64,000 nucleotides of DNA. Origin: Clostridia bacterium (lineage in GTDB: Bacteria; Bacillota; Clostridia; Oscillospirales; QAMX01). The notes under the pieces are model-generated. The model was not told where the DNA came from and searched no databases. It saw only the letters and a program-made list of their open reading frames with translations. The stretch covers positions 6,024 to 70,023 of the forward strand of contig JAFXIT010000056.1 in NCBI GenBank assembly GCA_017532825.1. Reading direction: 5' to 3'. Position numbers and translations under genes: made by a program. Shown piece after piece: positions 4,637 to 18,222 of this stretch. How positions within the stretch are numbered: position 1 is the stretch's first letter; the number at the start of each line of letters is the position of its first letter.

Positions 4637-5245
4637 ATGAACGCTGAATTTAGGATAAACGGAGTGCGCCTTGAGACCGACAGACTGGTACTCAGAGCCT
4701 TTGAAATGTCCGACCTTGACGACTTTTATGAATACGCCTCGGTCGAGGGTGTAGGCGAGATGGCAGGGTGGAGGCACCACGAAAGCAGGCAAAAAAGCCT
4801 TGAGATACTCGAGCTCTTTATTTCCGAGGATAAGACCTTTGCCATCTGTCTCAAGGAAAACGGCAAGGTCATCGGCTCTCTGGGCGTCGAAAGGTACGGC
4901 ATGGAAGAGGCTCTTACCGAGTTTGACGGATACAAGGGCAGAGAGATCGGATACGTGCTCGGCAAGGACTACTGGGGCAGGGGTATAATGCCCGAAGCGG
5001 TCAAGGCGGTGATAGGGTATCTCTTTGAGGTCTGTGACCTTGATTTCCTGACCTGCGGATATTACGATTTCAACTCACGCTCCAAAAGGGTACAGGAAAA
5101 GTGCGGCGTTAAGCCCTACCGAAGGCTCAAAATGGAGACAAGGCTCGGAACGGAGGAGCCGGGAGTGTTAAATCTCCTGACCAATTCCAATAAGGATATC
5201 ACCTTCGAATTTTCACATCCCGAGACGCTGATATTCCGAGACTGA
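4637..5245 (+). CDS. GNAT family N-acetyltransferase (RimJ/RimL-like)
   Basis: 202 aa with a GNAT fold pattern (…GYVLGKDYWGRGIMPEA…). Confidence 0.6.
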   Translation: MNAEFRINGVRLETDRLVLRAFEMSDLDDFYEYASVEGVGEMAGWRHHESRQKSLEILELFISEDKTFAICLKENGKVIGSLGVERYGMEEALTEFDGYKGREIGYVLGKDYWGRGIMPEAVKAVIGYLFEVCDLDFLTCGYYDFNSRSKRVQEKCGVKPYRRLKMETRLGTEEPGVLNLLTNSNKDITFEFSHPETLIFRD

Positions 5246-5320
5246 CGCTTTACACAAACAAAAGCACCCGATAATCGGGTGCTTTTCCCTGTTTGACGGA
5301 ATTAAAAGTTGCTTTAGGCT

Positions 5321-5349
5321 ATTGACTTTAGTCTGTTAGCGTGGTATAA
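5321..5349 (+). promoter_or_regulatory. sigma-A promoter for the aro leader
   Basis: TTGACT (5322-5327), 17-nt spacer, TGgTATAAT (5343-5350). Confidence 0.55.
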
Positions 5350-5383
5350 TATATGACAATAAATCACAAGGGAGGCAGCTTTA

Positions 5384-5446
5384 ATGATAAACGGTAAGAT
5401 ATACTTTTACTTTTATTACTTTAAAAGGGCTGCCCGTCTTATGTGA
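5384..5446 (+). CDS. putative attenuator leader peptide MINGKIYFYFYYFKRAARLM
   Basis: Strong RBS AGGGAGG 8 nt upstream of the ATG. The 20-codon ORF has seven consecutive Tyr/Phe codons (YFYFYYF). It sits directly upstream of the aromatic amino-acid biosynthesis operon. Confidence 0.5.
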   Translation: MINGKIYFYFYYFKRAARLM

Positions 5447-5482
5447 TCTCCAGGCTGAATAGCCTTGGGTCTAAATAAAACG

Positions 5483-5537
5483 GACAGTCCGCATTTGTTA
5501 TGCTTTTGAGCATACCTAAAGGCGGGCTTTTTATTTT
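5483..5537 (+). terminator. putative attenuator terminator
   Basis: GC stem (gtccgc…gcgggc) enclosing a sub-hairpin atgcttttgagcat, followed by TTTTTATTTT (5528-5537). The 3' arm aaggcgggc can alternatively pair with leader-ORF segment gcccgtctt (5431-5439). Confidence 0.4.
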
Positions 5538-5573
5538 GAGACGAAATAGACGTCGTAAACGAGGTGCAAAACA

Positions 5574-6602
5574 ATGCCAATGGTATTTCACAGAAAACTC
5601 CCCATTCCGCAGGAGGTCAAGAAGGAATTCCCCTTGAGCGAGCGTATGGAGAGGGTCAAGGCCGAACGTGATGAGGAGATAAAGGCAGTATTTGAAGGCA
5701 GATCGGATAAATTTATACTGGTCATAGGCCCCTGCTCGGCAGATCACAAGGAGCCGGTGCTTGAATACGTTTCCCGTCTGCGCAGGATAAGCGAGCTTGT
5801 TTCCGATAAAATTATCATTATCCCCCGCATATATACCAACAAGCCCCGTACCACGGGCAAGGGCTATAAGGGGATGCTTCACCAGCCCGACCCCGAGGCA
5901 AAGCCCGATATGTACAAGGGCATCGTTGCAATACGTGAGCTCCATCTGGAGGCCCTTCGGGATTACGACTTTACCTGCGCCGACGAGATGCTCTATCCCG
6001 AAAACTACCGCTACCTCTCCGATCTGCTTTCCTACGTTGCAATAGGCGCACGCTCGGTGGAAAATCAGCAGCATAGGCTTACCGCCAGCGGAATAGAGGT
6101 ACCCGTAGGCATGAAAAACCCCACCGGCGGCGACCTCGGCGTTATGATGAACTCCATAGTAGCGGCGCAGTCGGGGCATACCTTCCTCTACCGAGGCTGG
6201 GAGGTCACAAGCGACGGTAACCCCTGCGCCCACGCCATTTTGCGCGGGTACGTCGACTATGCGGGCAGAAATACATCTAACTACCACTATGAGGATCTCA
6301 TAAGGGTAAAGGAGCTCTACGAAAAGTCTAACCTCAAGAATGCATCGGTAATAGTCGATACAAACCACAACAATTCGGGCAAGCAGTACCTTGAGCAGGT
6401 GCGCATTGCCAAGGACATCGTCCACAGCCGCAACCAGAACGACGACATCAAGCGCCTTGTAAAGGGACTGATGATCGAAAGCTACCTTGAGGACGGCGCC
6501 CAGGGTGTCGACGAGCACGTTTTCGGTAAGTCGATTACCGACCCCTGCCTTGGCTGGGAAAAGACCGAGCGGCTGATACTCGATATTGCACAGAAGCTGT
6601 AA
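5574..6602 (+). CDS. aroG: 3-deoxy-7-phosphoheptulonate (DAHP) synthase, class I-alpha
   Basis: ILVIGPCSADH…KPRTTGKGYKG motifs typical of AroF/G/H-type DAHP synthases; 342 aa. Confidence 0.8.
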   Translation: MPMVFHRKLPIPQEVKKEFPLSERMERVKAERDEEIKAVFEGRSDKFILVIGPCSADHKEPVLEYVSRLRRISELVSDKIIIIPRIYTNKPRTTGKGYKGMLHQPDPEAKPDMYKGIVAIRELHLEALRDYDFTCADEMLYPENYRYLSDLLSYVAIGARSVENQQHRLTASGIEVPVGMKNPTGGDLGVMMNSIVAAQSGHTFLYRGWEVTSDGNPCAHAILRGYVDYAGRNTSNYHYEDLIRVKELYEKSNLKNASVIVDTNHNNSGKQYLEQVRIAKDIVHSRNQNDDIKRLVKGLMIESYLEDGAQGVDEHVFGKSITDPCLGWEKTERLILDIAQKL

Positions 6603-6626
6603 GTAATTTGGTGGCGGTGAGCAAAG

Positions 6627-7715
6627 ATGGCTAACAAGCTGGAACAGGCAAGAGAGATCATAAATCAGGTGGATGCAGAGATGGCGGAGCTGTTTGTAAA
6701 ACGGATGAGGGCCGCCGAGCTGGTATACGAGCATAAAAAGGAGTTTGGTCTTCCCATCCTTGACAGTAAGCGTGAGGAAGCGGTGGTCGAGAAAAACTCT
6801 GCCCTTGTCGAGGACGAGGTGCTAAAGGGGTATTATATCGAATACCTTAAGCAGGTGATGGCGGTATCCCGTGCCTACCAGTACCGTATGCAGAGCGGTC
6901 TGAGGATCGCTTACAGCGGAGTGGAGGGCGCATTTGCCCACATTGCTGCAGGTAGGATCTTTCCCGAGGGAAACCGTATCTCCTACGGCGATTTCAAGGC
7001 GGCATATAACTCGGTAGCCGACGGTGAATGCGACGTTGCCGTGCTTCCGATCGAAAACAGCTATGCAGGCGAGGTAGGGCAGACGCTCGACCTCATCTTC
7101 TCGGGTACCCTCCACGTCAACGGAATATACGAGCTTGAGATACACCAGAATCTGTTGGGCGTCCCCGGTGCGACCGTTGAGGACATCAGACGTGTGACAA
7201 GCCACCCCCAGGCGCTCAGCCAGTGCCACGATTATATCGAAATGCGGGGCTTTCAGACCGAGGAGGCAAACAATACAGCTCTTGCCGCCAAGACGGTCGC
7301 AGAGGCGGGCGAGCGGTCCTACGGCGCAATTGCAAGCGTTGAGACCGCCGAGCTTTACGGCCTTAAGGTCATAGAGGCAAACATAAACAAAAGCGGTGAG
7401 AATACCACCCGCTTTGCCGTCCTTTCCAGGGTGCCTGCCAATGCTCCCGCACTTTCAAGCACGGTACTGATGCTGACGGTCAAGCACGAGGCCGGCTCGC
7501 TTGCAAACGCCATCGGCATCATCGGAAAATACGGCTACAATATGACGGCCCTTCGCAGCCGTCCCATGAAAAGGCACTCTTGGCAGTACTACTTCTACAT
7601 CGAGATCGACGGTACGGTCGACAGCGAGAACGGAAAAAGCATGCTCAAGGAGCTGGGGAAGGTCTGTGACCGACTCAAGGTCGCGGGGTCGTTTGCTCCC
7701 CACACCGAGATATGA
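6627..7715 (+). CDS. pheA: bifunctional chorismate mutase / prephenate dehydratase
   Basis: N-terminal chorismate-mutase helix region, prephenate dehydratase core (IAYSGVEGAFAH…), and a C-terminal ACT domain. Confidence 0.8.
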   Translation: MANKLEQAREIINQVDAEMAELFVKRMRAAELVYEHKKEFGLPILDSKREEAVVEKNSALVEDEVLKGYYIEYLKQVMAVSRAYQYRMQSGLRIAYSGVEGAFAHIAAGRIFPEGNRISYGDFKAAYNSVADGECDVAVLPIENSYAGEVGQTLDLIFSGTLHVNGIYELEIHQNLLGVPGATVEDIRRVTSHPQALSQCHDYIEMRGFQTEEANNTALAAKTVAEAGERSYGAIASVETAELYGLKVIEANINKSGENTTRFAVLSRVPANAPALSSTVLMLTVKHEAGSLANAIGIIGKYGYNMTALRSRPMKRHSWQYYFYIEIDGTVDSENGKSMLKELGKVCDRLKVAGSFAPHTEI

Positions 7716-7726
7716 GGGTGAAGGCT

Positions 7727-8749
7727 ATGACGATACATATGAACCTCGGCGAGGACAGCTACGATATAATCGTAGAAAGAGGCATCCTTGAAAGGGCGGG
7801 TGAGCATCTGGAGCTTGACAGACGGGTGCTTATCGTCACAGATTCGGGTGTTCCGAGCGACTATGCCGAGATACTTGCAAAGCAGTGCAGGCAGGGAGTT
7901 ATCTGCAGACTTGACCAAGGCGAGGGCTCAAAGAGCCTCGATGGGTTTGCAAGGCTGCTTGAGACCATGCTTGAGCAGGGCTTTTCCCGCAGGGACTGCG
8001 TCGTTGCCGTCGGCGGCGGGGTGGTCGGTGACCTTTCGGGCTTTGCGGCGTCTGCCTATATGAGGGGGATCGACTTTTATAACATCCCCACGACCCTTCT
8101 TTCGCAGATAGACTCCTCCATAGGCGGCAAGACTGCAATAAATTTCTGTGGCGTCAAGAACGTCGTCGGTGCGTTCTACCAGCCCAAAAAGGTACTGGTC
8201 GACCCCGATCTGCTTGCCACACTTCCCAAAAGGCAGATATCAAACGGCCTTGCCGAGGCGGTGAAAATGTCGCTGACGTCCGACAGAGAGCTTTTTGAGC
8301 TCTTTGAAAGCGGGGACGCAGAGAGCAATATAGACACCGTGATCGTTCGCTCGCTGAATGTTAAAAAGAAGGTCGTTGAGCAGGACGAAAGGGAGGCGGG
8401 CCTTCGAAGGGTACTCAACTTCGGCCACACCGTAGGACACGGCATTGAAAGCAGCGAAGGGATGTCAGAGCTTTACCACGGCGAATGCGTGGCACTGGGC
8501 ATGATACCTATGTGCGGCGAAAGGGTAAGGCCGAGGCTGATAAAGGTGCTTAAAAGGTACGGACTTTACCGCAGGCTGCAATACGATTGGGAAAAGATCG
8601 CTCTTGCGGCATTCCACGACAAGAAGGCCGACGGAGACAGCGTAACGGTAGTTACCGTTGACGAGGTCGGAAGCTTTGAGATGAAAAAGATGAACTGCCT
8701 TGACGTTATTGAACTGGCGAAAAACAGTTTGGAAGGTTTGGTAGAATGA
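7727..8749 (+). CDS. aroB: 3-dehydroquinate synthase
   Basis: GGGVVGDLSGFAASAYMRGIDFYNIPTTLLSQIDSSIGGKTAIN. The start is ambiguous (7712 or 7727) and overlaps the pheA stop. Confidence 0.8.
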   Translation: MTIHMNLGEDSYDIIVERGILERAGEHLELDRRVLIVTDSGVPSDYAEILAKQCRQGVICRLDQGEGSKSLDGFARLLETMLEQGFSRRDCVVAVGGGVVGDLSGFAASAYMRGIDFYNIPTTLLSQIDSSIGGKTAINFCGVKNVVGAFYQPKKVLVDPDLLATLPKRQISNGLAEAVKMSLTSDRELFELFESGDAESNIDTVIVRSLNVKKKVVEQDEREAGLRRVLNFGHTVGHGIESSEGMSELYHGECVALGMIPMCGERVRPRLIKVLKRYGLYRRLQYDWEKIALAAFHDKKADGDSVTVVTVDEVGSFEMKKMNCLDVIELAKNSLEGLVE

Positions 8750-9834
8750 AAAACACGATCGGAAACAGCGTAGCGGTCACCCTCTTTGGTGAAAGCCACG
8801 GGGAGTATATCGGTGCAGTGCTTGACGGGCTTGCACCGGGAATCGAAATAAACCCCGAATATATTGCCCATATGCTCACACTCCGCCGTCCCGACGGGAG
8901 GATCTCCACCCCGAGAAAGGAAGCCGACGATTTTAAGATAGTCAGCGGTGTGGTCGAAAACAGGACCACGGGTACACCGATCGCCATTATTATCCCCAAC
9001 GAGAACGTTAAGAGCGGTGATTACTCCCAGATGAGGACGGTCGCCCGTCCCTCCCATGCTGACTATACCGCCCAGTGCAAATATCACGGCTATCAGGACT
9101 CCCGCGGTGGGGGACACTTCAGCGGTAGGATAACGGCGGCACTCGTTGCCGCAGGTGCGATATGCAAATATGCCTTGGAGCAAAAGGGCATATATATAGG
9201 CACCCACATCAAACGCTGCGGCGGCATTGCCGACAGCGATTTCGGAGACCTTCTTTCCGACATCACAAGCCTAAACGGCAAGACATTTGCGGTGCTTGAG
9301 GATGAAAAGGGCGAGCAGATGAGGCAGGCCGTTCTGGATGCGGCGGCAGAGGGAGACAGTGTCGGCGGTGTGCTCGAAACTGCGATAGTCGGTATGCCCG
9401 CAGGCGTAGGTGAGCCCTGGTTTGACACCCTTGAGAGCATGCTCTCGCATGTGATGTTTTCAATACCCGCTGTCAAGGGCATCGAATTCGGAGCGGGGTT
9501 TGCCATCTCCGATATGCGGGGAAGCGGTGCAAACGATCCCTTCAGAATGGAAAACGGCAGGGTGGTATCGGCTACAAACAACAACGGCGGCATTAACGGC
9601 GGCATTACCAACGGTATGCCCATCATCTTCCGTACCGCCATCAAGCCCACGCCCACCATCTTTAAGCCGCAGGATACGGTCGATTTTGCGACTATGACCG
9701 AGACGGTGCTCCAACCCAAGGGCAGGCACGACCCTGCCATCGTCCACAGAGCGAGGGTAGTACAGGACGCCGCATCGGCCTTGGTAATGTGTGATGCGCT
9801 GGCCATGCGTTTTGGGACGGATTTTCTGAAATAA
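8746..9834 (+). CDS. aroC: chorismate synthase
   Basis: GESHG…RPSHADYT…GGGHFSGR motifs. It overlaps the aroB stop (ATGA coupling). Confidence 0.85.
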   Translation: MKNTIGNSVAVTLFGESHGEYIGAVLDGLAPGIEINPEYIAHMLTLRRPDGRISTPRKEADDFKIVSGVVENRTTGTPIAIIIPNENVKSGDYSQMRTVARPSHADYTAQCKYHGYQDSRGGGHFSGRITAALVAAGAICKYALEQKGIYIGTHIKRCGGIADSDFGDLLSDITSLNGKTFAVLEDEKGEQMRQAVLDAAAEGDSVGGVLETAIVGMPAGVGEPWFDTLESMLSHVMFSIPAVKGIEFGAGFAISDMRGSGANDPFRMENGRVVSATNNNGGINGGITNGMPIIFRTAIKPTPTIFKPQDTVDFATMTETVLQPKGRHDPAIVHRARVVQDAASALVMCDALAMRFGTDFLK

Positions 9835-9856
9835 ATTGCGTAAACAGGTAAAAAAG

Positions 9857-11104
9857 ATGAAAAAGTACGGATGCATCGGCAAAAAGCTGACCCACAGCTT
9901 CTCAAAGGAGATCCATGCAAGGCTTGTCGACTACGAATATGAGCTGATCGAGCTTGACGAGGACGAGATAGCGGACTTCTTTGAAAAACGGGATTTCGAG
10001 GCCATAAACGTGACCATTCCCTATAAGCAGACCGTTATGGCCTATCTCGACGGTATAAGCGATATCGCAGGGCGCATAGGCGCAGTCAACACCATCGTCA
10101 ATAAAGAGGGCAGACTTTACGGATACAATACCGACTACTACGGTATGAAGGCGCTTATCGCCCGTGTGGGTCTGGAGCTTGAGGGCAAAAAGGTACTGGT
10201 GCTTGGCACCGGCGGAACAAGCAAGACCGCGCGTGTCGTTGCCGCCGACATGGGTGCCTCCGAGATACTTACGGTAAGCAGAAGAAAGACCGACGAATAT
10301 ATCACCTATGAGGAGGCGGTCGGGCTTCACTCGGATGCCGAGGTCATCATCAATACCACCCCCTCGGGGATGTATCCCGACTGCGGCTCACGGCCGATAG
10401 ACATATCCGCCTTTGACCGTCTTGAAGGCGTGATAGATGCAGTGTATAACCCCCTTCGCACCAACCTCGTGATGGATGCGAGGGAAAGAGGGATCAAGGC
10501 CGAGGGCGGACTGTATATGCTCGTTATGCAGGCAGTGGTAGCCGTGGAAAAATTCCTCGGCATCGAGATAGAAAAAAAGGTCGCCGACGGCGTTTTTGCG
10601 TCCGTTCTTGCATCAAAGGAGAATATAGTCCTGACGGGTATGCCGGGAAGCGGAAAAAGTACCGTCGGAAGGCTGCTCAAGCTCGATGGCTACGGCTTTG
10701 TCGACACCGACGAGGAGATAGAAAAGCGCTGCGGCTGTACCATAAGAGAGCTCATCGAGACCAAGGGCGAAGAATACTTCCGTGAGCTTGAGTCGGAGGT
10801 GATAGAGGATCTGTCTGCACACAGCTCCTGCGTCATCTCCACGGGCGGCGGTGCGGTCTTGAGAGAGCAAAACGTAAGGAGCCTTAGGCGAAACGGCAGA
10901 ATATTTTTTATCAACGCAGAGCTTTCAAGGCTTCGTGCCACCTCCTCCCGTCCGCTGTCGGATACGGAGGACAAGCTTGCAAGACTGTATGCCCAAAGAC
11001 TTGGTATATATAAAATGACCGCCGATGCGGTCGTCCCCGATATGGAGACAGCTATGGCGGAGGCAGAGTACATTTTAGCAAAACGGACGGAGCTGATAGT
11101 GTGA
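9857..11104 (+). CDS. aroE: fused shikimate dehydrogenase / shikimate kinase
   Basis: The N-terminal ~270 aa resemble AroE. The C-terminal part carries a Walker A motif (GMPGSGKSTVGRLL) and the rest of an AroK domain. Start taken at MKKYG. Confidence 0.75.
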   Translation: MKKYGCIGKKLTHSFSKEIHARLVDYEYELIELDEDEIADFFEKRDFEAINVTIPYKQTVMAYLDGISDIAGRIGAVNTIVNKEGRLYGYNTDYYGMKALIARVGLELEGKKVLVLGTGGTSKTARVVAADMGASEILTVSRRKTDEYITYEEAVGLHSDAEVIINTTPSGMYPDCGSRPIDISAFDRLEGVIDAVYNPLRTNLVMDARERGIKAEGGLYMLVMQAVVAVEKFLGIEIEKKVADGVFASVLASKENIVLTGMPGSGKSTVGRLLKLDGYGFVDTDEEIEKRCGCTIRELIETKGEEYFRELESEVIEDLSAHSSCVISTGGGAVLREQNVRSLRRNGRIFFINAELSRLRATSSRPLSDTEDKLARLYAQRLGIYKMTADAVVPDMETAMAEAEYILAKRTELIV

Positions 11105-11529
11105 AGATCCTCGTTATCAACGGACCTAATTTAAATATGCTCGGCATACGGGAGCCCGACCATTACGGAAAGGAGACCTATGACGACCTGGTTGCAAAGA
11201 TACGAGCCTACTGTGAAAAGAAGGGCGTCGAGGTCGAGCTTTTCCAATCCAACCACGAGGGTGCGCTTGTCGATGAGATACAAGGGGCGTACGGCAGGGT
11301 AGAGGGCATCGTTATCAATCCCGGGGCATATACCCATACAAGTATTGCCATTCTGGACGCCGTCAAGGCGGTAGGCATACCCACCGTTGAGGTGCATATC
11401 TCAAAGGTGGAGGAGCGGGAGGATTTCCGTCAGATAAGCTACGTGCGGCTTGCCTGCGTCAAGACTATAACGGGACAGGGCACGAACGGTTATCTCGAGG
11501 CCATAGACTTTTTAACAGAGGGAAAATGA
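11101..11529 (+). CDS. aroQ: type II 3-dehydroquinate dehydratase
   Basis: MKILVINGPNLNMLGIREP…; 142 aa. Confidence 0.85.
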   Translation: MKILVINGPNLNMLGIREPDHYGKETYDDLVAKIRAYCEKKGVEVELFQSNHEGALVDEIQGAYGRVEGIVINPGAYTHTSIAILDAVKAVGIPTVEVHISKVEEREDFRQISYVRLACVKTITGQGTNGYLEAIDFLTEGK

Positions 11530-11530
11530 T

Positions 11531-12733
11531 ATGACAGCAACGCTCAGACCCTGCAGACTGCAGGGAAGGATCGACGCTCCGCCCTCAAAAAGTATGGCCC
11601 ACAGATACCTCATCGGTGCGGCACTATCGGGACAGAGGTGTACTCTGTCGGGGGTCGATTACAGCGAGGACATCCTTGCAAGCATAGACTGCCTTAAGGC
11701 CCTCGGGGCCGATATATCCGCAGACGGGGACAGAATCACCGTAGATCCGCAAAAATTTATGAAGGCGGACGAGCCGGTGCTTGAGTGCAGGGAAAGCGGA
11801 AGCACCCTTCGCTTCTTTATTCCCCTTGCCCTCTGCCTTGGGAAAAAGGTCACACTGCGAGGCAGTGAACGTCTGTTTGAAAGACCGCTCGGAGTATACC
11901 AGGAGCTTTGCCGTGACAAGGGCTTTACCTTTGCTCGGGACAGAGGCTCGGTGTCCCTCTGCGGAAGACTTCAAAGCGGATGCTATAGGGTCAGAGGGGA
12001 TATCAGCAGCCAGTTCATCACAGGTCTGATATTTGCCCTTGTATACCTCGGTGGAAATTCCCGCATCGAGGTCATCCCGCCCTTTGAAAGCCGCTCCTAC
12101 GTCGATCTGACTCTGTCGGCACTGCGCTGCTTTGGCGCAGAGGTTGCCTTTACGGGCGAATATGAAATTGAGATTAGATCGGCAAGGATGCATGCTTTTT
12201 CGGGCAGGATCGAGGGAGACTATTCAAACGCCGCCTTCCTTGACGCCTTCAACAGCATCGGCTCGGAGGTCTGTATCGGCAATCTGAACCCCGACAGCCT
12301 GCAGGGCGACAGGGTGTATGCCGAGTATTTCAGACAGCTCTCAAGCGGAACTCCGACCCTTGATATATCCGACTGCCCCGACCTCGGACCGATACTTTTC
12401 GCCCTTGCGGCGGTTAAAAACGGTGCGACCTTCAAGGGCACCGACCGTCTCAAGGCAAAGGAAAGCGACAGAGGAGCGGCTATGCACCGTGAGCTTTCAA
12501 GGCTGGGCGGCGGACTGATATTCGGAGACAATACCATCACCGTTCCAAAGCAGGAGCTCAAATATATGGGAGAGGCGCTGGAGGGACACAACGACCACCG
12601 TATCGTTATGGCCATGACGGTCGTGCTCTCAAAGCTCGGCGGAACTATCAGCGGTGTCGAGGCGGTCAAAAAGAGCTATCCCGGATTTTTTGAGGATATA
12701 AAACGGCTTGGAGCAGAGGTGGAATTAGCATGA
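11531..12733 (+). CDS. aroA: 3-phosphoshikimate 1-carboxyvinyltransferase (EPSP synthase)
   Basis: LQGRIDAPPSKSMAHRYLIGAALS and an EPSP-synthase fold pattern; 400 aa. Confidence 0.8.
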   Translation: MTATLRPCRLQGRIDAPPSKSMAHRYLIGAALSGQRCTLSGVDYSEDILASIDCLKALGADISADGDRITVDPQKFMKADEPVLECRESGSTLRFFIPLALCLGKKVTLRGSERLFERPLGVYQELCRDKGFTFARDRGSVSLCGRLQSGCYRVRGDISSQFITGLIFALVYLGGNSRIEVIPPFESRSYVDLTLSALRCFGAEVAFTGEYEIEIRSARMHAFSGRIEGDYSNAAFLDAFNSIGSEVCIGNLNPDSLQGDRVYAEYFRQLSSGTPTLDISDCPDLGPILFALAAVKNGATFKGTDRLKAKESDRGAAMHRELSRLGGGLIFGDNTITVPKQELKYMGEALEGHNDHRIVMAMTVVLSKLGGTISGVEAVKKSYPGFFEDIKRLGAEVELA

Positions 12734-13586
12734 TAGTAGACGTAAGCAAAAAAATACTCATCGTAGGCCTCGGTCTGTTGGGCGGAAGCTACGCCAAGGT
12801 GCTCAAGCGCTTTGGATTCCACATAAGCGCAGTTACCAAGGAGCAGAGCTCCATAGACTATGCCATCCGTGAGAATATAATAGACGAGGGCTCGACAGAG
12901 CCCGACCAAAGGCTTGTCGGTGAGGCGGATCTTGTGGTGTTTGCGCTCTATCCCCACGTCTTCGTGGAGTGGATAGAGCAGTACCAGGGACTGCTCAAGA
13001 GCGGTGCTCTCATTACCGACGTAACGGGTGTCAAGTCAGTATCGTATACCGTATCCAGGAGATGCTCCGCCCCGACGTGGAATTCATTGCGGCACACCCC
13101 ATGGCAGGCCGTGAGGTGTCGGGCGTTGAAAACAGCACCGATAAAATGTTCGTCGGCGCAAACTACATCGTAACGCCGACCGAGAAGAATACTCCCGAGG
13201 CCATACAGACCTGTGTGGAGCTTGGAAGACTGCTCGGCTTTTCCAACGTGATGACCCTATCTCCCGAGGAACACGACGAGATGATAGGCTTTCTTTCACA
13301 GCTTACCCACTGTATCGCAATTACGCTGATGACCTGCAACGACAAGGAGAACATGGAAAAGTTTACCGGTGACTCCTTTAGGGACCTTACCCGTATCGCG
13401 CGAATCAACGATGTGATGTGGAGCGAGCTGTTTGTGTCAAATAAGACGGCACTTTTGGAGCAGATGCAGCTGTTTATGGACAAGTTCGGCCAGCTCAAGA
13501 CGATGCTTGAGAACGAGGACATAGAGGGCATGAGAGAAATGATGCGCCATTCGACCCGCCGCAGGGCGCTGTTTGAAAAGAAGTAG
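12730..13586 (+). pseudogene. tyrA: prephenate dehydrogenase, disrupted by an apparent -1 frameshift near 13035-13050
   Basis: Two overlapping ORFs (12730-13173 and 12969-13586) together cover a TyrA-like protein. They are a Rossmann N-terminus (LIVGLGLLGGS…DVTGVKS) and, in the other frame, …FIAAHPMAGREVSG… and the C-terminal domain. Confidence 0.55.
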
Positions 13587-13587
13587 T

Positions 13588-14073
13588 ATGATACGCAGAG
13601 CTGAGAAAAAGGATATCCCAAGGCTCGGAGAGCTGCTTTCGCAGGTGGATCTTGTTCACCATAAGGGCAGGCCCGATATCTTTAAGATAGGCAGGAAGTA
13701 TTCCGATGAGGAGCTTTGGGAGCTGTTAGGCGACCAAACACGCCCCATCCTTGTCTACGCGGACGAAAACGACAGGGTAGAGGGGTACTGCTTTTGCATC
13801 CTCCAACAGCATATTGACAATTCGGTGCTGACCGATATAAAGACGCTCTATATTGACGATCTCTGCGTAGACGAGTGTCAGCGTGGGAAGCATATAGGCA
13901 AGAAGCTCTACCTTGCTGCGGTAGAGCTTGCAAAGGAAAGCGGATGCTACAACCTTACCCTGAACGTGTGGAGCTGTAACCCCGATGCGATGGGTTTTTA
14001 TCTGGCGCAGGGGCTTGTTGCGCAAAAGGTAGGAATGGAGCTTATACTTAACCAAGAAGAGTTACGGAGGTAA
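13588..14073 (+). CDS. GNAT family acetyltransferase
   Basis: ~161 aa GNAT pattern. ATG at 13588 immediately follows the tyrA stop. Confidence 0.55.
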   Translation: MIRRAEKKDIPRLGELLSQVDLVHHKGRPDIFKIGRKYSDEELWELLGDQTRPILVYADENDRVEGYCFCILQQHIDNSVLTDIKTLYIDDLCVDECQRGKHIGKKLYLAAVELAKESGCYNLTLNVWSCNPDAMGFYLAQGLVAQKVGMELILNQEELRR

Positions 14074-14076
14074 GAA

Positions 14077-15513
14077 ATGAAAAAGACCTACGTTACGTCA
14101 ATGCCCGATCATATAGGTGCCTTTCTGAGGGCAAGTAAATGCTTTTCGGCTCTCGGAATAAATATAACACGAGTAAGCTACAACAAGGCAGTTGACTCTA
14201 ACACCCTCTTTATTGATGCGGAGGGTACGCAAGAACAGCTGAGCAAGGCCGACGTTGAGCTTGAAAAGATCGGATACCTTCAAAACAATGCGAACAAAAC
14301 CAGTATCGTACTGATCGAGTTTTGCCTTGAGGACGTTCCGGGCAGTGTTACAAACGTCCTCAGCCTCATCAGTGATTTTAATTTTAATATTTCCTATATC
14401 AGCTCCCAGGAAAACGGTACCGACTATCAGCTCTTTAAAATGGGTCTGTACGTTGAGGACTTTGACAAGATATCCGAATTTCTCAAGGAGGCGGAAAAGC
14501 TCTGCAGGGTGCGGGTGATAGATTACAACCGTTCGGAAAAGGTGTACGACAACAGTATCTTCTACAACACCTACGTTATGGGTCTCTCCCAGACGATGGG
14601 ACTGTCGGAGGACGTCAGACGTGAGCTGTTGGTCCACGTTAACCTGGCCATGCAAACCCTTGACGAGCAGGGACTGTCGCCCTATCGTACCTTTGACAGC
14701 ATAAGTAAGTTTGCCGAGCTGCTTGGTGCATCCAAGGGAAATGCCTTCGTGCCCAGAATAAGCACCCACAAAATAACCGACAATACCGAGCTTACCCTCA
14801 TAGAGCCGCCCTGCGGCAGTAATACGATCATAATAAAAAGCAACGGCAGGGTGCTGTTTGTGGACTGCGGTTACGCCTGCTACAAGGACGAGATGCTTGA
14901 GGTCTATCAAAGGATCGTTCCCGATTTTGAAAATATCAGAAAGACCGTTTTGGTGACCCATGCCGACGTTGACCATTGCGGATTGCTTCCTTTGTTTGAC
15001 GAGGTCATAGCCAGCCGTAAAACGGCGAACTGTCTGAAAGAGGAGTATCTCGGAAACGGCGGGTACAGGGGAAAGAATCCCCTCCACAAGCCGTATGTAA
15101 ATATCTGCAAGACGCTTACCTCCTATAAAGCCGTAGACCCCAAAAAGGTCACGGTGTTGTGGGAAGACCGTGAGTGCTTGACAGAGCCTCTTACCCAGAT
15201 AGGCTTTTTTGACTTTGAGGAGCTGCATTTTGAGGTCTACGAGGGAAGGGGAGGACACCTGCCCGGAGAGATAGTGCTGATAGACTACGCAAAGCATATT
15301 GCGCTCACGGGTGATATTTACATCAACGTCCACGGCCTTACCCCGCAGCAGGCAGAGTATAATCGGTATGCGCCGATACTGATGACCTCGGTCGACACAG
15401 ACCCCGAGCTTTGCGCACAGGAAAGAAAAGCGATAATAGGTCGACTCGGCGTGGGCGACTGGCAGATATTCGGAGCACACGGGTTTAAAAAGGAGTATTC
15501 GGTAAAGATCTGA
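14077..15513 (+). CDS. tandem ACT domains fused to an MBL-fold (metallo-beta-lactamase-like) domain, function unknown
   Basis: The N-terminus has two ACT-like ligand-binding modules (…MPDHIGAFLRASKCFSALGINITRV…; …VPGSVTNVLSLISDFNFNISYI…). The C-terminus carries MBL-fold signatures (THADVDH, GGH, TGD, GAHG). It is translationally coupled to the aro operon. Confidence 0.55.
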   Translation: MKKTYVTSMPDHIGAFLRASKCFSALGINITRVSYNKAVDSNTLFIDAEGTQEQLSKADVELEKIGYLQNNANKTSIVLIEFCLEDVPGSVTNVLSLISDFNFNISYISSQENGTDYQLFKMGLYVEDFDKISEFLKEAEKLCRVRVIDYNRSEKVYDNSIFYNTYVMGLSQTMGLSEDVRRELLVHVNLAMQTLDEQGLSPYRTFDSISKFAELLGASKGNAFVPRISTHKITDNTELTLIEPPCGSNTIIIKSNGRVLFVDCGYACYKDEMLEVYQRIVPDFENIRKTVLVTHADVDHCGLLPLFDEVIASRKTANCLKEEYLGNGGYRGKNPLHKPYVNICKTLTSYKAVDPKKVTVLWEDRECLTEPLTQIGFFDFEELHFEVYEGRGGHLPGEIVLIDYAKHIALTGDIYINVHGLTPQQAEYNRYAPILMTSVDTDPELCAQERKAIIGRLGVGDWQIFGAHGFKKEYSVKI

Positions 15514-15868: not shown

Positions 15869-15921
15869 ATTCAAATTGGTAACCATTAATTGATCGGTCG
15901 GAAATGAAAGGAGACAGAAAA

Positions 15922-18222
15922 ATGGATTACAGTTTGAAAGAGGTCGCAGTCAGAATAAAGGATCTGCGAGAGGCGAAGGGATATACCCAAGAGGAGCTTG
16001 CAAAGCTTACGGGTGTATCGGTCGAGGAGTACCGTGTTCTGGAGGAAGGAAACACCGACTTCAGCTTTACCTTTATCTACAAGTGCGCCAAGGCCTGCGA
16101 CGTTGAGGTAGTGGACATTCTTGAAGGTCGAAGCACGACTCTTACCTCGTTTGCCATCACCAGAAAGGGTGACGGACTTAAGATATTGAAGCAGCACGGC
16201 GTTGAATATAATAACTTAGCCCCCAAATTCAAGGAAAAGCTTGCCGAGCCCTTCCTTGTAAAATTTCCCTACCTCCCCGAGGAACAGAATGCTCCGCTGA
16301 AGCTCAACTCTCACAACGGTCAGGAGTTCGACGTAATAGTTAAGGGCTCACTTAAGGTGCAGGTCGGCAACCACGTGGACGTTCTCAACGAGGGTGACTC
16401 CATCTTCTATAACAGCCTTATACCTCACGGAATGATCGCCGTCAGCGAAGGCGGATGCGAATTCCATGCAGTAGTCCTCAACCCTCAGGACGGCCTTGTG
16501 AGCGAGGAATATCCCGAGGTCCCATACGTTGCGGCTAAAAGGGTCGAGAAGCAGGCTGACGTGGCGACCGTCGCCGATAACTTCGTTGAATCCTTCTACG
16601 ATGAAAAGGGCGTATTTAACGGCATCAAATTCAAAAACGACGACAAATTTAACTTTGCCTTCGACTGCGTCGACGCCATCGCCGAAAAGACCCCCGACAA
16701 GCTTGCGATGCTGTGGGTCGCAAACGACAAGACCGACCGCAGATTTACCTTCAACGACATGAAAAAATATTCCGCAAGGACCGCCAACTACTTTGAGTCC
16801 CTCGGAATACAAAAGGGCGACACCGTAATGCTCGTTTTGAAGCGCCACTACCAGTTCTGGTTCTGTATGCTTGCCCTTCACAAGATCGGCGCCATCGCTA
16901 TCCCTGCCACCAATCAGCTCGTTGAGCACGACTTCACCTACCGATACAGGGCCGCAAAGGTAAAGGCAATAGTCTGTACCGCCGACGGCGAGGTGTCGAC
17001 CGAGGCTGAAAAGGCTGCCGCAGAATTTCCCGATATGCTTAAGATACTGGTCGACGGAAAGAAGGAAGGCTGGCACGACTTCAATCTGGAGATGGAGCGC
17101 TTCAGCTCCAAGTACAGCCGCACCGAAAATACTCCCTGCGGCTCCGATCCGATGCTGATGCTCTTTACCTCGGGCACGACCGGATATCCCCGTATCGCCA
17201 CCCACTCCTATAAGTATGCTCTGGGACACTATCCCACTGCAAGGCATTGGCACAACGTCAAGCCCGACGGCCTGCACTTTACCATCTCTGATACCGGCTG
17301 GGGAAAGGCACTCTGGGGCAAGCTGTACGGACAGTGGCTCTGCGAGGCAGGGGTGTTTACCTATGACTTCGACAGATTCCATTCCGAAGACATACTGCCG
17401 ATGTTTGCAAAGTACAATATCACCACCTTCTGCGCACCTCCCACGATGTACCGCTTCTTTATCAAAGAGGACCTTTCAAAGTACGACCTCTCGTCGATAC
17501 AGTACGCAACTACTGCCGGTGAGGCGCTCAACCCCGAGGTGTTCAACCAGTTTAAGAAGGCTACCGGACTTACCATAATGGAGGGCTTCGGTCAGACCGA
17601 GACCACTCTTTCGATAGCAAACTTCGTCGGCTCAACCCCCAAGATCGGCTCTATGGGCAGACCCAGCCCCCTCTACGACGTCGTTGTTCTCGATCCCGAC
17701 GGCAACGAATGTCAGGTCGGCGATACGGGCGAGATCTGCATCCGCACCAAGGACGGCGCTCCCTGCGGTCTCTTTATCGGATATTACCTTGACGAGGAAA
17801 AGACAAACGAGGTCTGGCACGACGGCTTCTACCACACGGGCGACCAGGCGACCATGGACGAGGACGGATACCTTTGGTACGTCGGACGTATCGACGACGT
17901 CATCAAGTCCTCCGGCTACCGTATAGGACCCTTCGAGATCGAAAGTGTCATCATGGAGCTTCCTTACGTTCTTGAATGTGCCGTCACCCCCGTACCCGAC
18001 GAGGTCAGAGGCCAGATAGTAAAGGCTACCGTCGTTTTGGTAAAGGGTCAGAAGGGGTCCGACGAGCTCAAAAAGAATATCCAGGAATACGTCAAGACCC
18101 ATACCGCTCCCTACAAATATCCGAGAATAGTCGAATTTGTAGATGAGCTTCCAAAGACCATAAGCGGCAAGGTAAGACGTGTCGAGATACGCAAAAACGA
18201 CCTCAAAAATCTCCAAAAGTAA
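15922..18222 (+). CDS. XRE-HTH + cupin domain fused to an AMP-forming acyl-CoA synthetase (ACSM/Acs-like)
   Basis: The N-terminal ~200 aa are an HTH_3 domain (…LTQEELAKLTGVS…) followed by a cupin. The remaining ~570 aa are an AMP-binding enzyme (LFTSGTTGYPR, GFGQTET, GDxxxxDEDGYLWYVGRxDDVIKSSGYRI, …ISGKVRR). RBS AAGGAGA precedes ATG 15922. Confidence 0.7.
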   Translation: MDYSLKEVAVRIKDLREAKGYTQEELAKLTGVSVEEYRVLEEGNTDFSFTFIYKCAKACDVEVVDILEGRSTTLTSFAITRKGDGLKILKQHGVEYNNLAPKFKEKLAEPFLVKFPYLPEEQNAPLKLNSHNGQEFDVIVKGSLKVQVGNHVDVLNEGDSIFYNSLIPHGMIAVSEGGCEFHAVVLNPQDGLVSEEYPEVPYVAAKRVEKQADVATVADNFVESFYDEKGVFNGIKFKNDDKFNFAFDCVDAIAEKTPDKLAMLWVANDKTDRRFTFNDMKKYSARTANYFESLGIQKGDTVMLVLKRHYQFWFCMLALHKIGAIAIPATNQLVEHDFTYRYRAAKVKAIVCTADGEVSTEAEKAAAEFPDMLKILVDGKKEGWHDFNLEMERFSSKYSRTENTPCGSDPMLMLFTSGTTGYPRIATHSYKYALGHYPTARHWHNVKPDGLHFTISDTGWGKALWGKLYGQWLCEAGVFTYDFDRFHSEDILPMFAKYNITTFCAPPTMYRFFIKEDLSKYDLSSIQYATTAGEALNPEVFNQFKKATGLTIMEGFGQTETTLSIANFVGSTPKIGSMGRPSPLYDVVVLDPDGNECQVGDTGEICIRTKDGAPCGLFIGYYLDEEKTNEVWHDGFYHTGDQATMDEDGYLWYVGRIDDVIKSSGYRIGPFEIESVIMELPYVLECAVTPVPDEVRGQIVKATVVLVKGQKGSDELKKNIQEYVKTHTAPYKYPRIVEFVDELPKTISGKVRRVEIRKNDLKNLQK

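Follow-up and report, generated by a model that had tools for sequence, protein, structure and literature searches.

What governs expression of the ten-gene operon for the shikimate, phenylalanine and tyrosine pathway that begins with aroG in a stretch of 64,000 nucleotides from a Clostridia bacterium (contig JAFXIT010000056.1 of assembly GCA_017532825.1, positions 6,024 to 70,023; this whole 64-kb stretch is called the window)? An earlier note, made from the letters of this DNA, had seen in the region before aroG the architecture of ribosome-mediated transcription attenuation. That reading is supported by the conservation in relatives of a leader open reading frame (ORF), a terminator and the alternative pairing between them. 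We put the probability at roughly 85% that the element is a classical ribosome-mediated transcription attenuator of the aroG-pheA-aroB-aroC-aroEK-aroQ-aroA-tyrA operon, sensing charged tRNA-Phe and tRNA-Tyr.

The element occupies positions 5322-5537, directly upstream of aroG, and comprises a promoter, a ribosome-binding site, a 20-codon ORF encoding MINGKIYFYFYYFKRAARLM and an intrinsic terminator. Its parts, numbered from the first letter of the window, are the following.

5322-5350, plus strand: promoter of the sigma-A/sigma-70 type, with a -35 element TTGACT (5322-5327), an extended -10 element TGgTATAAT (5342-5350) and a spacer of 17 nt
5364-5380, plus strand: segment 1, UCACAAGGGAGGCAGCU, which holds the leader's Shine-Dalgarno (SD) sequence and pairs with segment 2 to give an anti-antiterminator in which the SD is sequestered
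5370-5375, plus strand: leader SD GGGAGG, 8 nt 5' of the leader ATG
5384-5446, plus strand: leader ORF of 20 codons, with its UGA stop at 5444-5446
5402-5422, plus strand: regulatory run UAC UUU UAC UUU UAU UAC UUU (Y F Y F Y Y F), the proposed site of ribosome stalling when Phe-tRNA or Tyr-tRNA is scarce
5427-5446, plus strand: segment 2, GGGCUGCCCGUCUUAUGUGA, the partner of segment 1 or, through 5427-5442, of segment 3
5445-5471, plus strand: variable hairpin that links segments 2 and 3 and caps the antiterminator
5475-5492, plus strand: segment 3, AUAAAACGGACAGUCCGC, of which 5475-5490 pair with segment 2 and 5486-5492 form the 5' arm of the terminator
5486-5537, plus strand: intrinsic terminator, with a hairpin at 5486-5528 and the U tract UUUUUAUUUU at 5528-5537
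5561-5565, plus strand: aroG SD GAGGT, ahead of the aroG ATG at 5574

The promoter, which the earlier note had recognized, matches 11 of 12 consensus positions in addition to its extended -10 TG, and it is conserved: relatives carry TTGACTTT...TAYAAT at an equal distance. Transcription would start at about 5357. Direct reading of the sequence likewise confirms the leader ORF, its strong ribosome-binding site and the YFYFYYF run, the codons being ATG ATA AAC GGT AAG ATA TAC TTT TAC TTT TAT TAC TTT AAA AGG GCT GCC CGT CTT ATG TGA. The GC stem and U tract that had been placed at 5483-5537 were essentially right. The terminator hairpin has a folding energy of -17.8 kcal/mol and consists of a lower stem (AGUCCGC/GCGGGCU), a middle stem (UUUG/UAAA) and an apical stem (UAUGCU/AGCAUA). 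The leader as a whole is more stably folded than its shuffles (z = -4.7). Its sequence is identical across four independent metagenome assemblies, so the version in the window is not an assembly error.

The aromatic run is exceptional within its surroundings. YFYFYYF is the sole run of at least five Phe, Tyr or Trp codons in the six frames of the 64-kb window, and none of 200 Markov-1 random sequences held a run of at least seven aromatic codons. Scanning the window for other SD-preceded micro-ORFs with amino-acid runs gave nothing convincing beyond the Phe/Tyr leader.

Whether the micro-ORF is under selection was judged from its relatives. A scan with the AroG protein, taking one genome per species, yielded 80 loci at 68-90% identity, almost all of them metagenome-assembled genomes (MAGs) of gut origin, animal or human, that carry the labels Acutalibacteraceae, Oscillospiraceae, Clostridia or Eubacteriales. 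A covariance model (R1) built from the leaders of 32 of these relatives (alignment A1) finds 37 leader copies at E <= 1e-10, with scores of 79-160 bits, spread over 34 related Oscillospirales genomes or contigs; the window holds a single copy. The copies sit before aroG or, in one relative (L019), before tyrA-aroG. Where a real intergenic region precedes aroG, a micro-ORF of the type M-x(2-5)-[FY]4-8-K-G-C-P-S-x-V... is found at the same place. Searching homologous aroG upstream regions, as the earlier note had suggested, thus finds the micro-ORF conserved rather than missing: all 37 copies have an SD and an ATG in frame with four to eight consecutive Phe/Tyr codons, uninterrupted by a stop. 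A metagenome search with the pattern CTGCCCG-N35-62-GGWCRGTCCGC returned 80 loci, 79 of which were chance matches from soil and water metagenomes; the pattern was too loose, and only one match (L152) was genuine.

The aromatic run shows a strict triplet periodicity. Throughout the 37 leaders its first codon position is T, its second T or A and its third T or C, such that the run is built from the set TTT, TTC, TAT and TAC only, with 130 Phe and 121 Tyr codons in total and no Trp codon in any of the 37. Because this periodicity is kept in the frame of the conserved start, it indicates that selection acts on these codons as they are translated into Phe and Tyr; U-richness of the RNA alone would not produce it. 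The same data dispose of the idea that a U-rich spacer happens to read as Phe/Tyr codons beside an unrelated terminator left over from the upstream gene. Such an accident gains some plausibility from the U-richness of Phe and Tyr codons and from the commonness of U/A-rich leaders. The upstream gene, however, has its own terminator at 5260-5286, before the promoter, a run of this length is absent from the random sequences, and the whole element recurs at 37 sites with high scores. We regard chance as refuted by this conservation and as hardly conceivable.

Downstream of the run the constraint is of a different kind. The end of the run and the segment-2 motif are separated by 6 nt in 28/32 leaders and by 5 nt in the window, and the segment-2 nucleotides GGGCUGCCCGUCUU are nearly invariant among relatives. 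In 25/32 leaders the stop codon follows the start of the segment-2 motif by exactly 30 nt, which places it in the loop of the variable hairpin; this loop carries the stop in most relatives. In the window and in L009, segment 2 is read in a different frame and translation would end at the conserved UGUGA. Since the frame shifts while the nucleotides stay nearly invariant, the C terminus of the leader peptide is selected as RNA and not as protein.

This bears on a second alternative, in which the product itself acts, either as a functional micropeptide rich in aromatic residues or, like TnaC and ErmCL, as a nascent chain that arrests its ribosome in response to a small molecule. The fixed position of the stop codon in 25 of the 32 relatives in alignment A1 would suit such a peptide, as would its continuation as K-G/D-C-P-S-x-V in most of them, and nascent chains rich in aromatic residues are able to contact the exit tunnel of the ribosome. 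Yet the frame-shifted leaders of the window and L009 have lost the GCPS... tail and kept the nucleotides, the window's version being the one found in four independent assemblies. Moreover, Phe and Tyr interchange freely within a run whose length varies from 4 to 8, and induction of a biosynthetic operon by an excess of free Phe or Tyr would be illogical. We consider a peptide acting in its own right extremely unlikely, and return to attenuation driven by the decoding of Phe and Tyr codons.

Attenuation of this kind requires RNA segments that pair in mutually exclusive ways. Three helices are found, each paired in a larger fraction of alignment cells than in slid controls.

5486-5492 with 5522-5528, extended by UUUG/UAAA at 5494-5497 with 5517-5520, plus strand: terminator helix 3:4, with 87-88% of cells paired against 29-53% in slid controls
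5427-5442 with 5475-5490, plus strand: antiterminator helix 2:3, with 87% of cells paired against 35-45% in slid controls
5364-5379 (UCACA, the SD and GCAGC) with 5429-5446, plus strand: anti-antiterminator helix 1:2, with 79-82% of cells paired against 42-51% in slid controls

Several pairs of the terminator helix carry compensatory changes, and RNAalifold recovers its lower stem unaided. For helix 1:2, 19 cells have double-sided changes versus 8.8 in shuffles, and none of 500 shuffles reaches 19. In one relative (L002) segment 3 has U in place of C, and both segment 2 and segment 4 have A in place of G, a three-way compensation. The hairpin between segments 2 and 3 persists in 35 leaders although its sequence diverges (mean z = -2.8). 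The apex of the terminator, whose sequence is not conserved either, still folds into a hairpin in 35 leaders (mean z -2.5).

The antiterminator that emerges is not the one first proposed. The earlier note had paired gcccgtctt within the leader ORF with aaggcgggc in the 3' arm of the terminator. The two do form 9 bp with one G.U, aaggcgggc lying at 5519-5527, and gcccgtctt is found at 5432-5440 and not at 5431-5439 as had been given. The pairing is possible in the window. We rejected it as the main antiterminator, as a C.A mismatch breaks it in 19/32 relatives and it is kinetically late, forming only after the terminator is complete. The antiterminator most likely joins segment 2 (5427-5442) to 5475-5490, a stretch made up of bases of the terminator's 5' arm and those that precede it; we prefer this fold because it forms when segment 2 is free. 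It overlaps the terminator's 5' arm, so that the two structures are mutually exclusive.

Folding in silico reproduces a switch. Folding the leader with and without its segments sequestered, a check that the earlier note had put forward, gives the terminator for the full leader, the antiterminator when segment 1 is removed and the terminator when segment 2 is masked. In the window, the minimum free energy (MFE) structure of the full leader contains helix 1:2, the middle hairpin and the terminator. RNAs that start at or before 5426 have the antiterminator as their MFE structure and lose the terminator, while for those that start at or after 5429 the terminator is the MFE structure. In the transcript before segment 4 has been made, the 2:3 structure is the sole stable fold, at -29.1 kcal/mol including its apical hairpin. 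Among the 32 relatives' leaders, the full leader gives the terminator in 29, deletion of segment 1 gives the antiterminator in 21, with the others near-isoenergetic, and 30 fold into the terminator once the 5' half of segment 2 is deleted.

The locus thereby combines the features by which leader-peptide attenuators are recognized. An SD-led ORF stands between the promoter and the first structural gene; it contains a cluster of codons for Phe and Tyr, the end products of the operon's own pheA and tyrA; and an intrinsic terminator lies between the ORF and the first gene. The upstream strand of the antiterminator would be covered by a ribosome at the stop codon and left exposed by one stalled at the regulatory codons, and masking in silico gives the corresponding switch in the window and most relatives.

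We propose that the element would work as follows. Transcription would begin near 5357, and a ribosome would load on the SD at 5370-5375 and translate the 20-codon leader. With Phe-tRNA and Tyr-tRNA plentiful, it would pass the seven Tyr/Phe codons and reach the stop at 5444-5446, where it would cover segment 2 (5427-5446), since segment 2 sits within the 3' end of the leader ORF. Segments 3 and 4 would then pair, the terminator would form and RNA polymerase would halt at the U tract (5528-5537). Were either charged tRNA scarce, the ribosome would stall within about the first five aromatic codons (5402-5416); if it covers, as is usual, about 11-12 nt beyond the first A-site base on the 3' side, its leading edge would lie at or before about 5426. 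Such a stall would leave segment 2 free, and the ribosome, positioned between segments 1 and 2, would hold the two apart. Segment 2 would then pair with segment 3 as soon as this is made (-29 kcal/mol with the apical hairpin), taking five of the seven bases of the terminator's 5' arm and permitting read-through into aroG. If there were no translation, or if the ribosome were released, segments 1 and 2 would pair, the 3:4 terminator would form and the default state would be off. Because segment 1 contains the leader SD, this off state would also keep new ribosomes from initiating there; once the first ribosome had loaded during transcription, the leader would put an end to its own translation.

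Several observations weigh against this mechanism or parts of it. In 11/32 leaders the terminator is still favoured without segment 1, so that a kinetic advantage for 2:3 pairing must be assumed in these cases. Segment 1 lies upstream of the coding region, and a stalled ribosome gives it no direct masking. When folding was constrained with a masked ribosome footprint, segments 1 and 2 still paired across the ribosome. We set this calculation aside as sterically unrealistic, because both strands would abut the sites of mRNA entry and exit, and substituted folding of only the RNA 3' of the ribosome. When helices 1:2 and 3:4 are tested jointly, changes on both sides occur in 15 pairs, compared with 8.3 +/- 1.6 in shuffles (0/500 reach the observed value), in an alignment (A3, covariance-model based) that was fitted to the model and hence inflates these pair counts. 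The antiterminator 2:3 shows no significant covariation in the relatives' alignment because both of its strands are almost invariant; the candidate helix draws its support from conservation and thermodynamics, covariation being weak. Finally, segments 2 and 3 are more conserved than pairing requires, bulged bases included, and it is possible that they have an additional role in binding a factor.

Near-invariance that extends to unpaired positions, beyond the needs of base pairing, and an antiterminator lacking significant covariation are also what might be seen if segments 2 and 3 with the terminator were a riboswitch or a protein-binding attenuator, responding to a metabolite or an RNA-binding regulator, with the Phe/Tyr ORF incidental. 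An untranslated aptamer would not be expected to show the strict codon periodicity of the aromatic run, in the frame of a conserved SD and ATG in 37/37 copies, nor the spacing of 6 nt between run and segment-2 motif in 28/32 leaders, nor a stop codon that always falls within or just past segment 2. There is also no match to an Rfam family. We therefore hold this explanation to be highly unlikely and retain ribosome-mediated attenuation as the reading of the locus.

How the operon is controlled in the wider clade fits with tRNA charging as the signal. The earlier note had remarked that aromatic pathways in Firmicutes are usually under T-box control. Two close relatives (L022 and L030, 85% AroG identity) indeed carry a Phe T-box instead of the leader, with scores of 110 and 105 bits (the gathering score being 93) and the specifier GAA-UUC-A, which is that of Phe. 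Three others carry the leader in tandem.

L022, 2151-2402: T-box directly before aroG
L030, 325-576: T-box followed by a 460-aa gene, a 143-aa gene and aroG, in this order
L006, 688-859 and 865-1040: tandem leaders
L016, 2060-2235 and 2283-2463: tandem leaders
L152, 1527-1711 and 1732-1906: tandem leaders

The position of the Phe T-boxes, equivalent to that of the leader, indicates that the same operon is under tRNA-charging control in this clade. In the tandem arrangements before aroG each copy is complete, with a Phe/Tyr ORF and a terminator. Such tandem arrangement is also seen among other cis-regulatory leaders.

Elsewhere the element moves with its operon or decays. In L019 a leader at 1296-1488 stands before tyrA (1524-2381), with aroG next. 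The order is aroQ-aroA-tyrA-aroG in more distant relatives at about 70% identity, L056 among them, and gene order in the operon is fluid. At nearly all loci without a leader, aroG lies 4-30 nt behind tyrA or pheA, inside an operon; absence of the leader there is uninformative because the start of the operon falls beyond the DNA fetched. In L014 (2293-2461) the element is decaying, its ORF kept and its run degenerate (F-T-F-I-F), and in L017 (2302-2465) the leader ORF is lost while segment 3 and the terminator are kept.

One further locus, L062, has a non-homologous aromatic-rich ORF, MKSISNLYYIFSYFFSKVFYFGYAFFGMKKLQVSI, at 2302-2409 before aroG, with 12 Phe/Tyr in 35 codons and a terminator at 2449-2472. 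CAAGUGAG, found in the last codons of this ORF, repeats the 3' arm of the terminator that comes after it. The alternative pairing that this would allow is not the MFE structure. The L062 leader may be an independently evolved attenuator.

The genes downstream of the leader agree with the sensing of Phe and Tyr. Pfam confirms the shikimate/Phe/Tyr pathway content of the ten-gene operon that had been named in the earlier note, which had listed tyrA among its genes without the frameshift that it carries in the window.

5574-6602, plus strand: aroG, 3-deoxy-D-arabino-heptulosonate 7-phosphate (DAHP) synthase (Pfam)
6627-7715, plus strand: pheA, CM-PDT-ACT (chorismate mutase-prephenate dehydratase-ACT; Pfam)
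7712-8749, plus strand: aroB (Pfam)
8746-9834, plus strand: aroC (Pfam)
9836-11104, plus strand: aroE-aroK fusion (Pfam)
11101-11529, plus strand: aroQ (Pfam)
11531-12733, plus strand: aroA (Pfam)
12730-13586, plus strand: tyrA, frameshifted (Pfam)
13573-14073, plus strand: GNAT (Pfam)
14077-15513, plus strand: ACT-MBL, an ACT domain fused to a metallo-beta-lactamase fold and the last gene of the operon (Pfam)

Junctions between these genes overlap or leave a gap of at most 24 nt, and the ten genes at 5574-15513 are probably co-transcribed. By Pfam there are no trp genes among them. The tyrA gene is split into two overlapping ORFs, 12730-13173 and 12969-13586, with the junction near 13026-13054; compared with the intact 285-aa TyrA of L019, residues 1-109 are in one frame and 100-285 in another. 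The split would be either a real pseudogene or an assembly error, and a true pseudogene would imply Tyr auxotrophy.

A 431-aa ORF on the minus strand (5439-6734) overlaps aroG and the 3' half of the leader. It is almost certainly spurious because the plus strand has a strong match to DAHP synthase. Downstream of the operon, the next gene, at 15904-18222, encodes 772 aa with an unusual combination of an HTH-cupin domain and an AMP-binding enzyme. Upstream, a GNAT gene ends at 5245 and is followed by a hairpin.

5260-5286, both strands: bidirectional terminator, a perfect 12-bp hairpin (AAAAGCACCCGAU-A-AUCGGGUGCUUUU) with a run of A and a run of T at its flanks

From its sequence, this hairpin is the predicted terminator of the upstream GNAT gene and would insulate the aro promoter.

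The element is a well-conserved new family of a textbook mechanism. A modest extra interest lies in its dual sensing of Phe and Tyr, its SD-containing anti-antiterminator, and its replacement by T-boxes and tandem duplication in relatives. It is fairly probable that these leaders constitute an undescribed RNA family widespread in uncultured gut Oscillospirales, a dual Phe and Tyr attenuator of the whole aromatic operon with an SD-built anti-antiterminator, tandem copies and exchange with T-boxes. The finding concerns shikimate/Phe/Tyr regulation in a large group of Clostridia from the gut that is uncultured and represented by Oscillospirales/Acutalibacteraceae MAGs of ruminants, humans and other animals; the pathway is relevant to the production of aromatic metabolites in the gut and to glyphosate sensitivity. 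Among Firmicutes, which rely mostly on T-boxes, it is one more case of classical leader-peptide attenuation, and a well-supported one. Orthologous operons with either a Phe T-box or a Phe/Tyr leader make the replacement of one tRNA-charging sensor by another directly studyable. The covariance model can be used to annotate the element in metagenomes, and the element itself is a potential compact Phe/Tyr-responsive part for engineering anaerobes.

How does the leader compare with known systems? Rfam gave no match at gathering score anywhere in the window, which places the element outside Phe_leader, Trp_leader, His_leader, leu/phe-leader and the other curated leader families. At E <= 10, positions 5200-5650 gave chance matches only, to unrelated small RNAs and, for the rimP leader model, to the upstream gene's terminator, to which the weak matches at 5229-5331 correspond. 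No T-box (RF00230) was found in the window, a negative that is credible because the same search detects the T-boxes of L022 and L030. Aromatic leader peptides of Clostridia are nowhere described in the literature searched, which did not include Lopatovskaya et al. (2010, Mol Biol 44:128).

The leader resembles E. coli pheL-pheA, trpL and hisL in its promoter-proximal micro-ORF rich in codons for pathway products, its three mutually exclusive helices and the masking of segment 2 at the stop codon. E. coli pheL has 7 Phe in 15 codons. There is no homology to the E. coli leaders in sequence or structure, as judged by the lack of a match to an Rfam leader family, and the host is a Gram-positive anaerobe. 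The window leader would sense Phe and Tyr about equally and control the common pathway together with pheA and tyrA, whereas E. coli pheL controls pheA alone. Furthermore, its segment 1 precedes the ORF and coincides with the SD region of the leader itself, whereas segment 1 of trpL and pheL lies in the coding region.

The closest functional counterpart is aroR-aroF of C. glutamicum, in which the first gene is the same. A Phe-Tyr-Phe leader peptide there precedes the DAHP synthase operon (Neshat et al. 2014, via PMC11802643). PMC11802643 describes experimental evidence that Phe limitation leads to ribosome stalling and more read-through, Tyr availability reportedly being without effect. The likeness is one of functional features, a Phe/Tyr leader peptide and a terminator upstream of a DAHP synthase gene. 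The differences are that C. glutamicum belongs to the Actinobacteria and that its leader has three regulatory codons, against seven in the window and 4-8 in relatives. Common ancestry is unlikely because of the phylogenetic distance.

A further candidate is the uORFC-13-1 motif of Acholeplasma. In Brewer et al. (2021, PMC8632094) this is a candidate upstream ORF found exclusively before the DAHP synthase gene aroF, with a promoter, a ribosome-binding site, a start codon and a U-rich Phe-coding run directly before an intrinsic terminator. Its 24 representatives, with 'at least one' Phe codon, are there assigned to Acholeplasma and unassigned environmental sequences only (PMC8632094). We liken it to the window leader by its description. 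An AroG protein search aimed at Acholeplasma listed 120 matches, all of them relatives at 86-100% identity.

Leader-peptide attenuation is not unprecedented in Firmicutes, since His-leader attenuators that replace T-box or repressor control have been predicted there, including in Eubacteriales (Ashniev et al. 2022, PMC9413887). These differ from the window leader in having 3-5 His codons, in serving another operon and in their hosts, the B. cereus group, Peptostreptococcaceae and Erysipelotrichales (PMC9413887). The Phe T-boxes (RF00230) of close relatives share with the leader its genomic position, the reading of tRNA-Phe charging and the choice between terminator and antiterminator. They differ from it in that uncharged tRNA is sensed directly, by pairing between RNA and tRNA, without translation.

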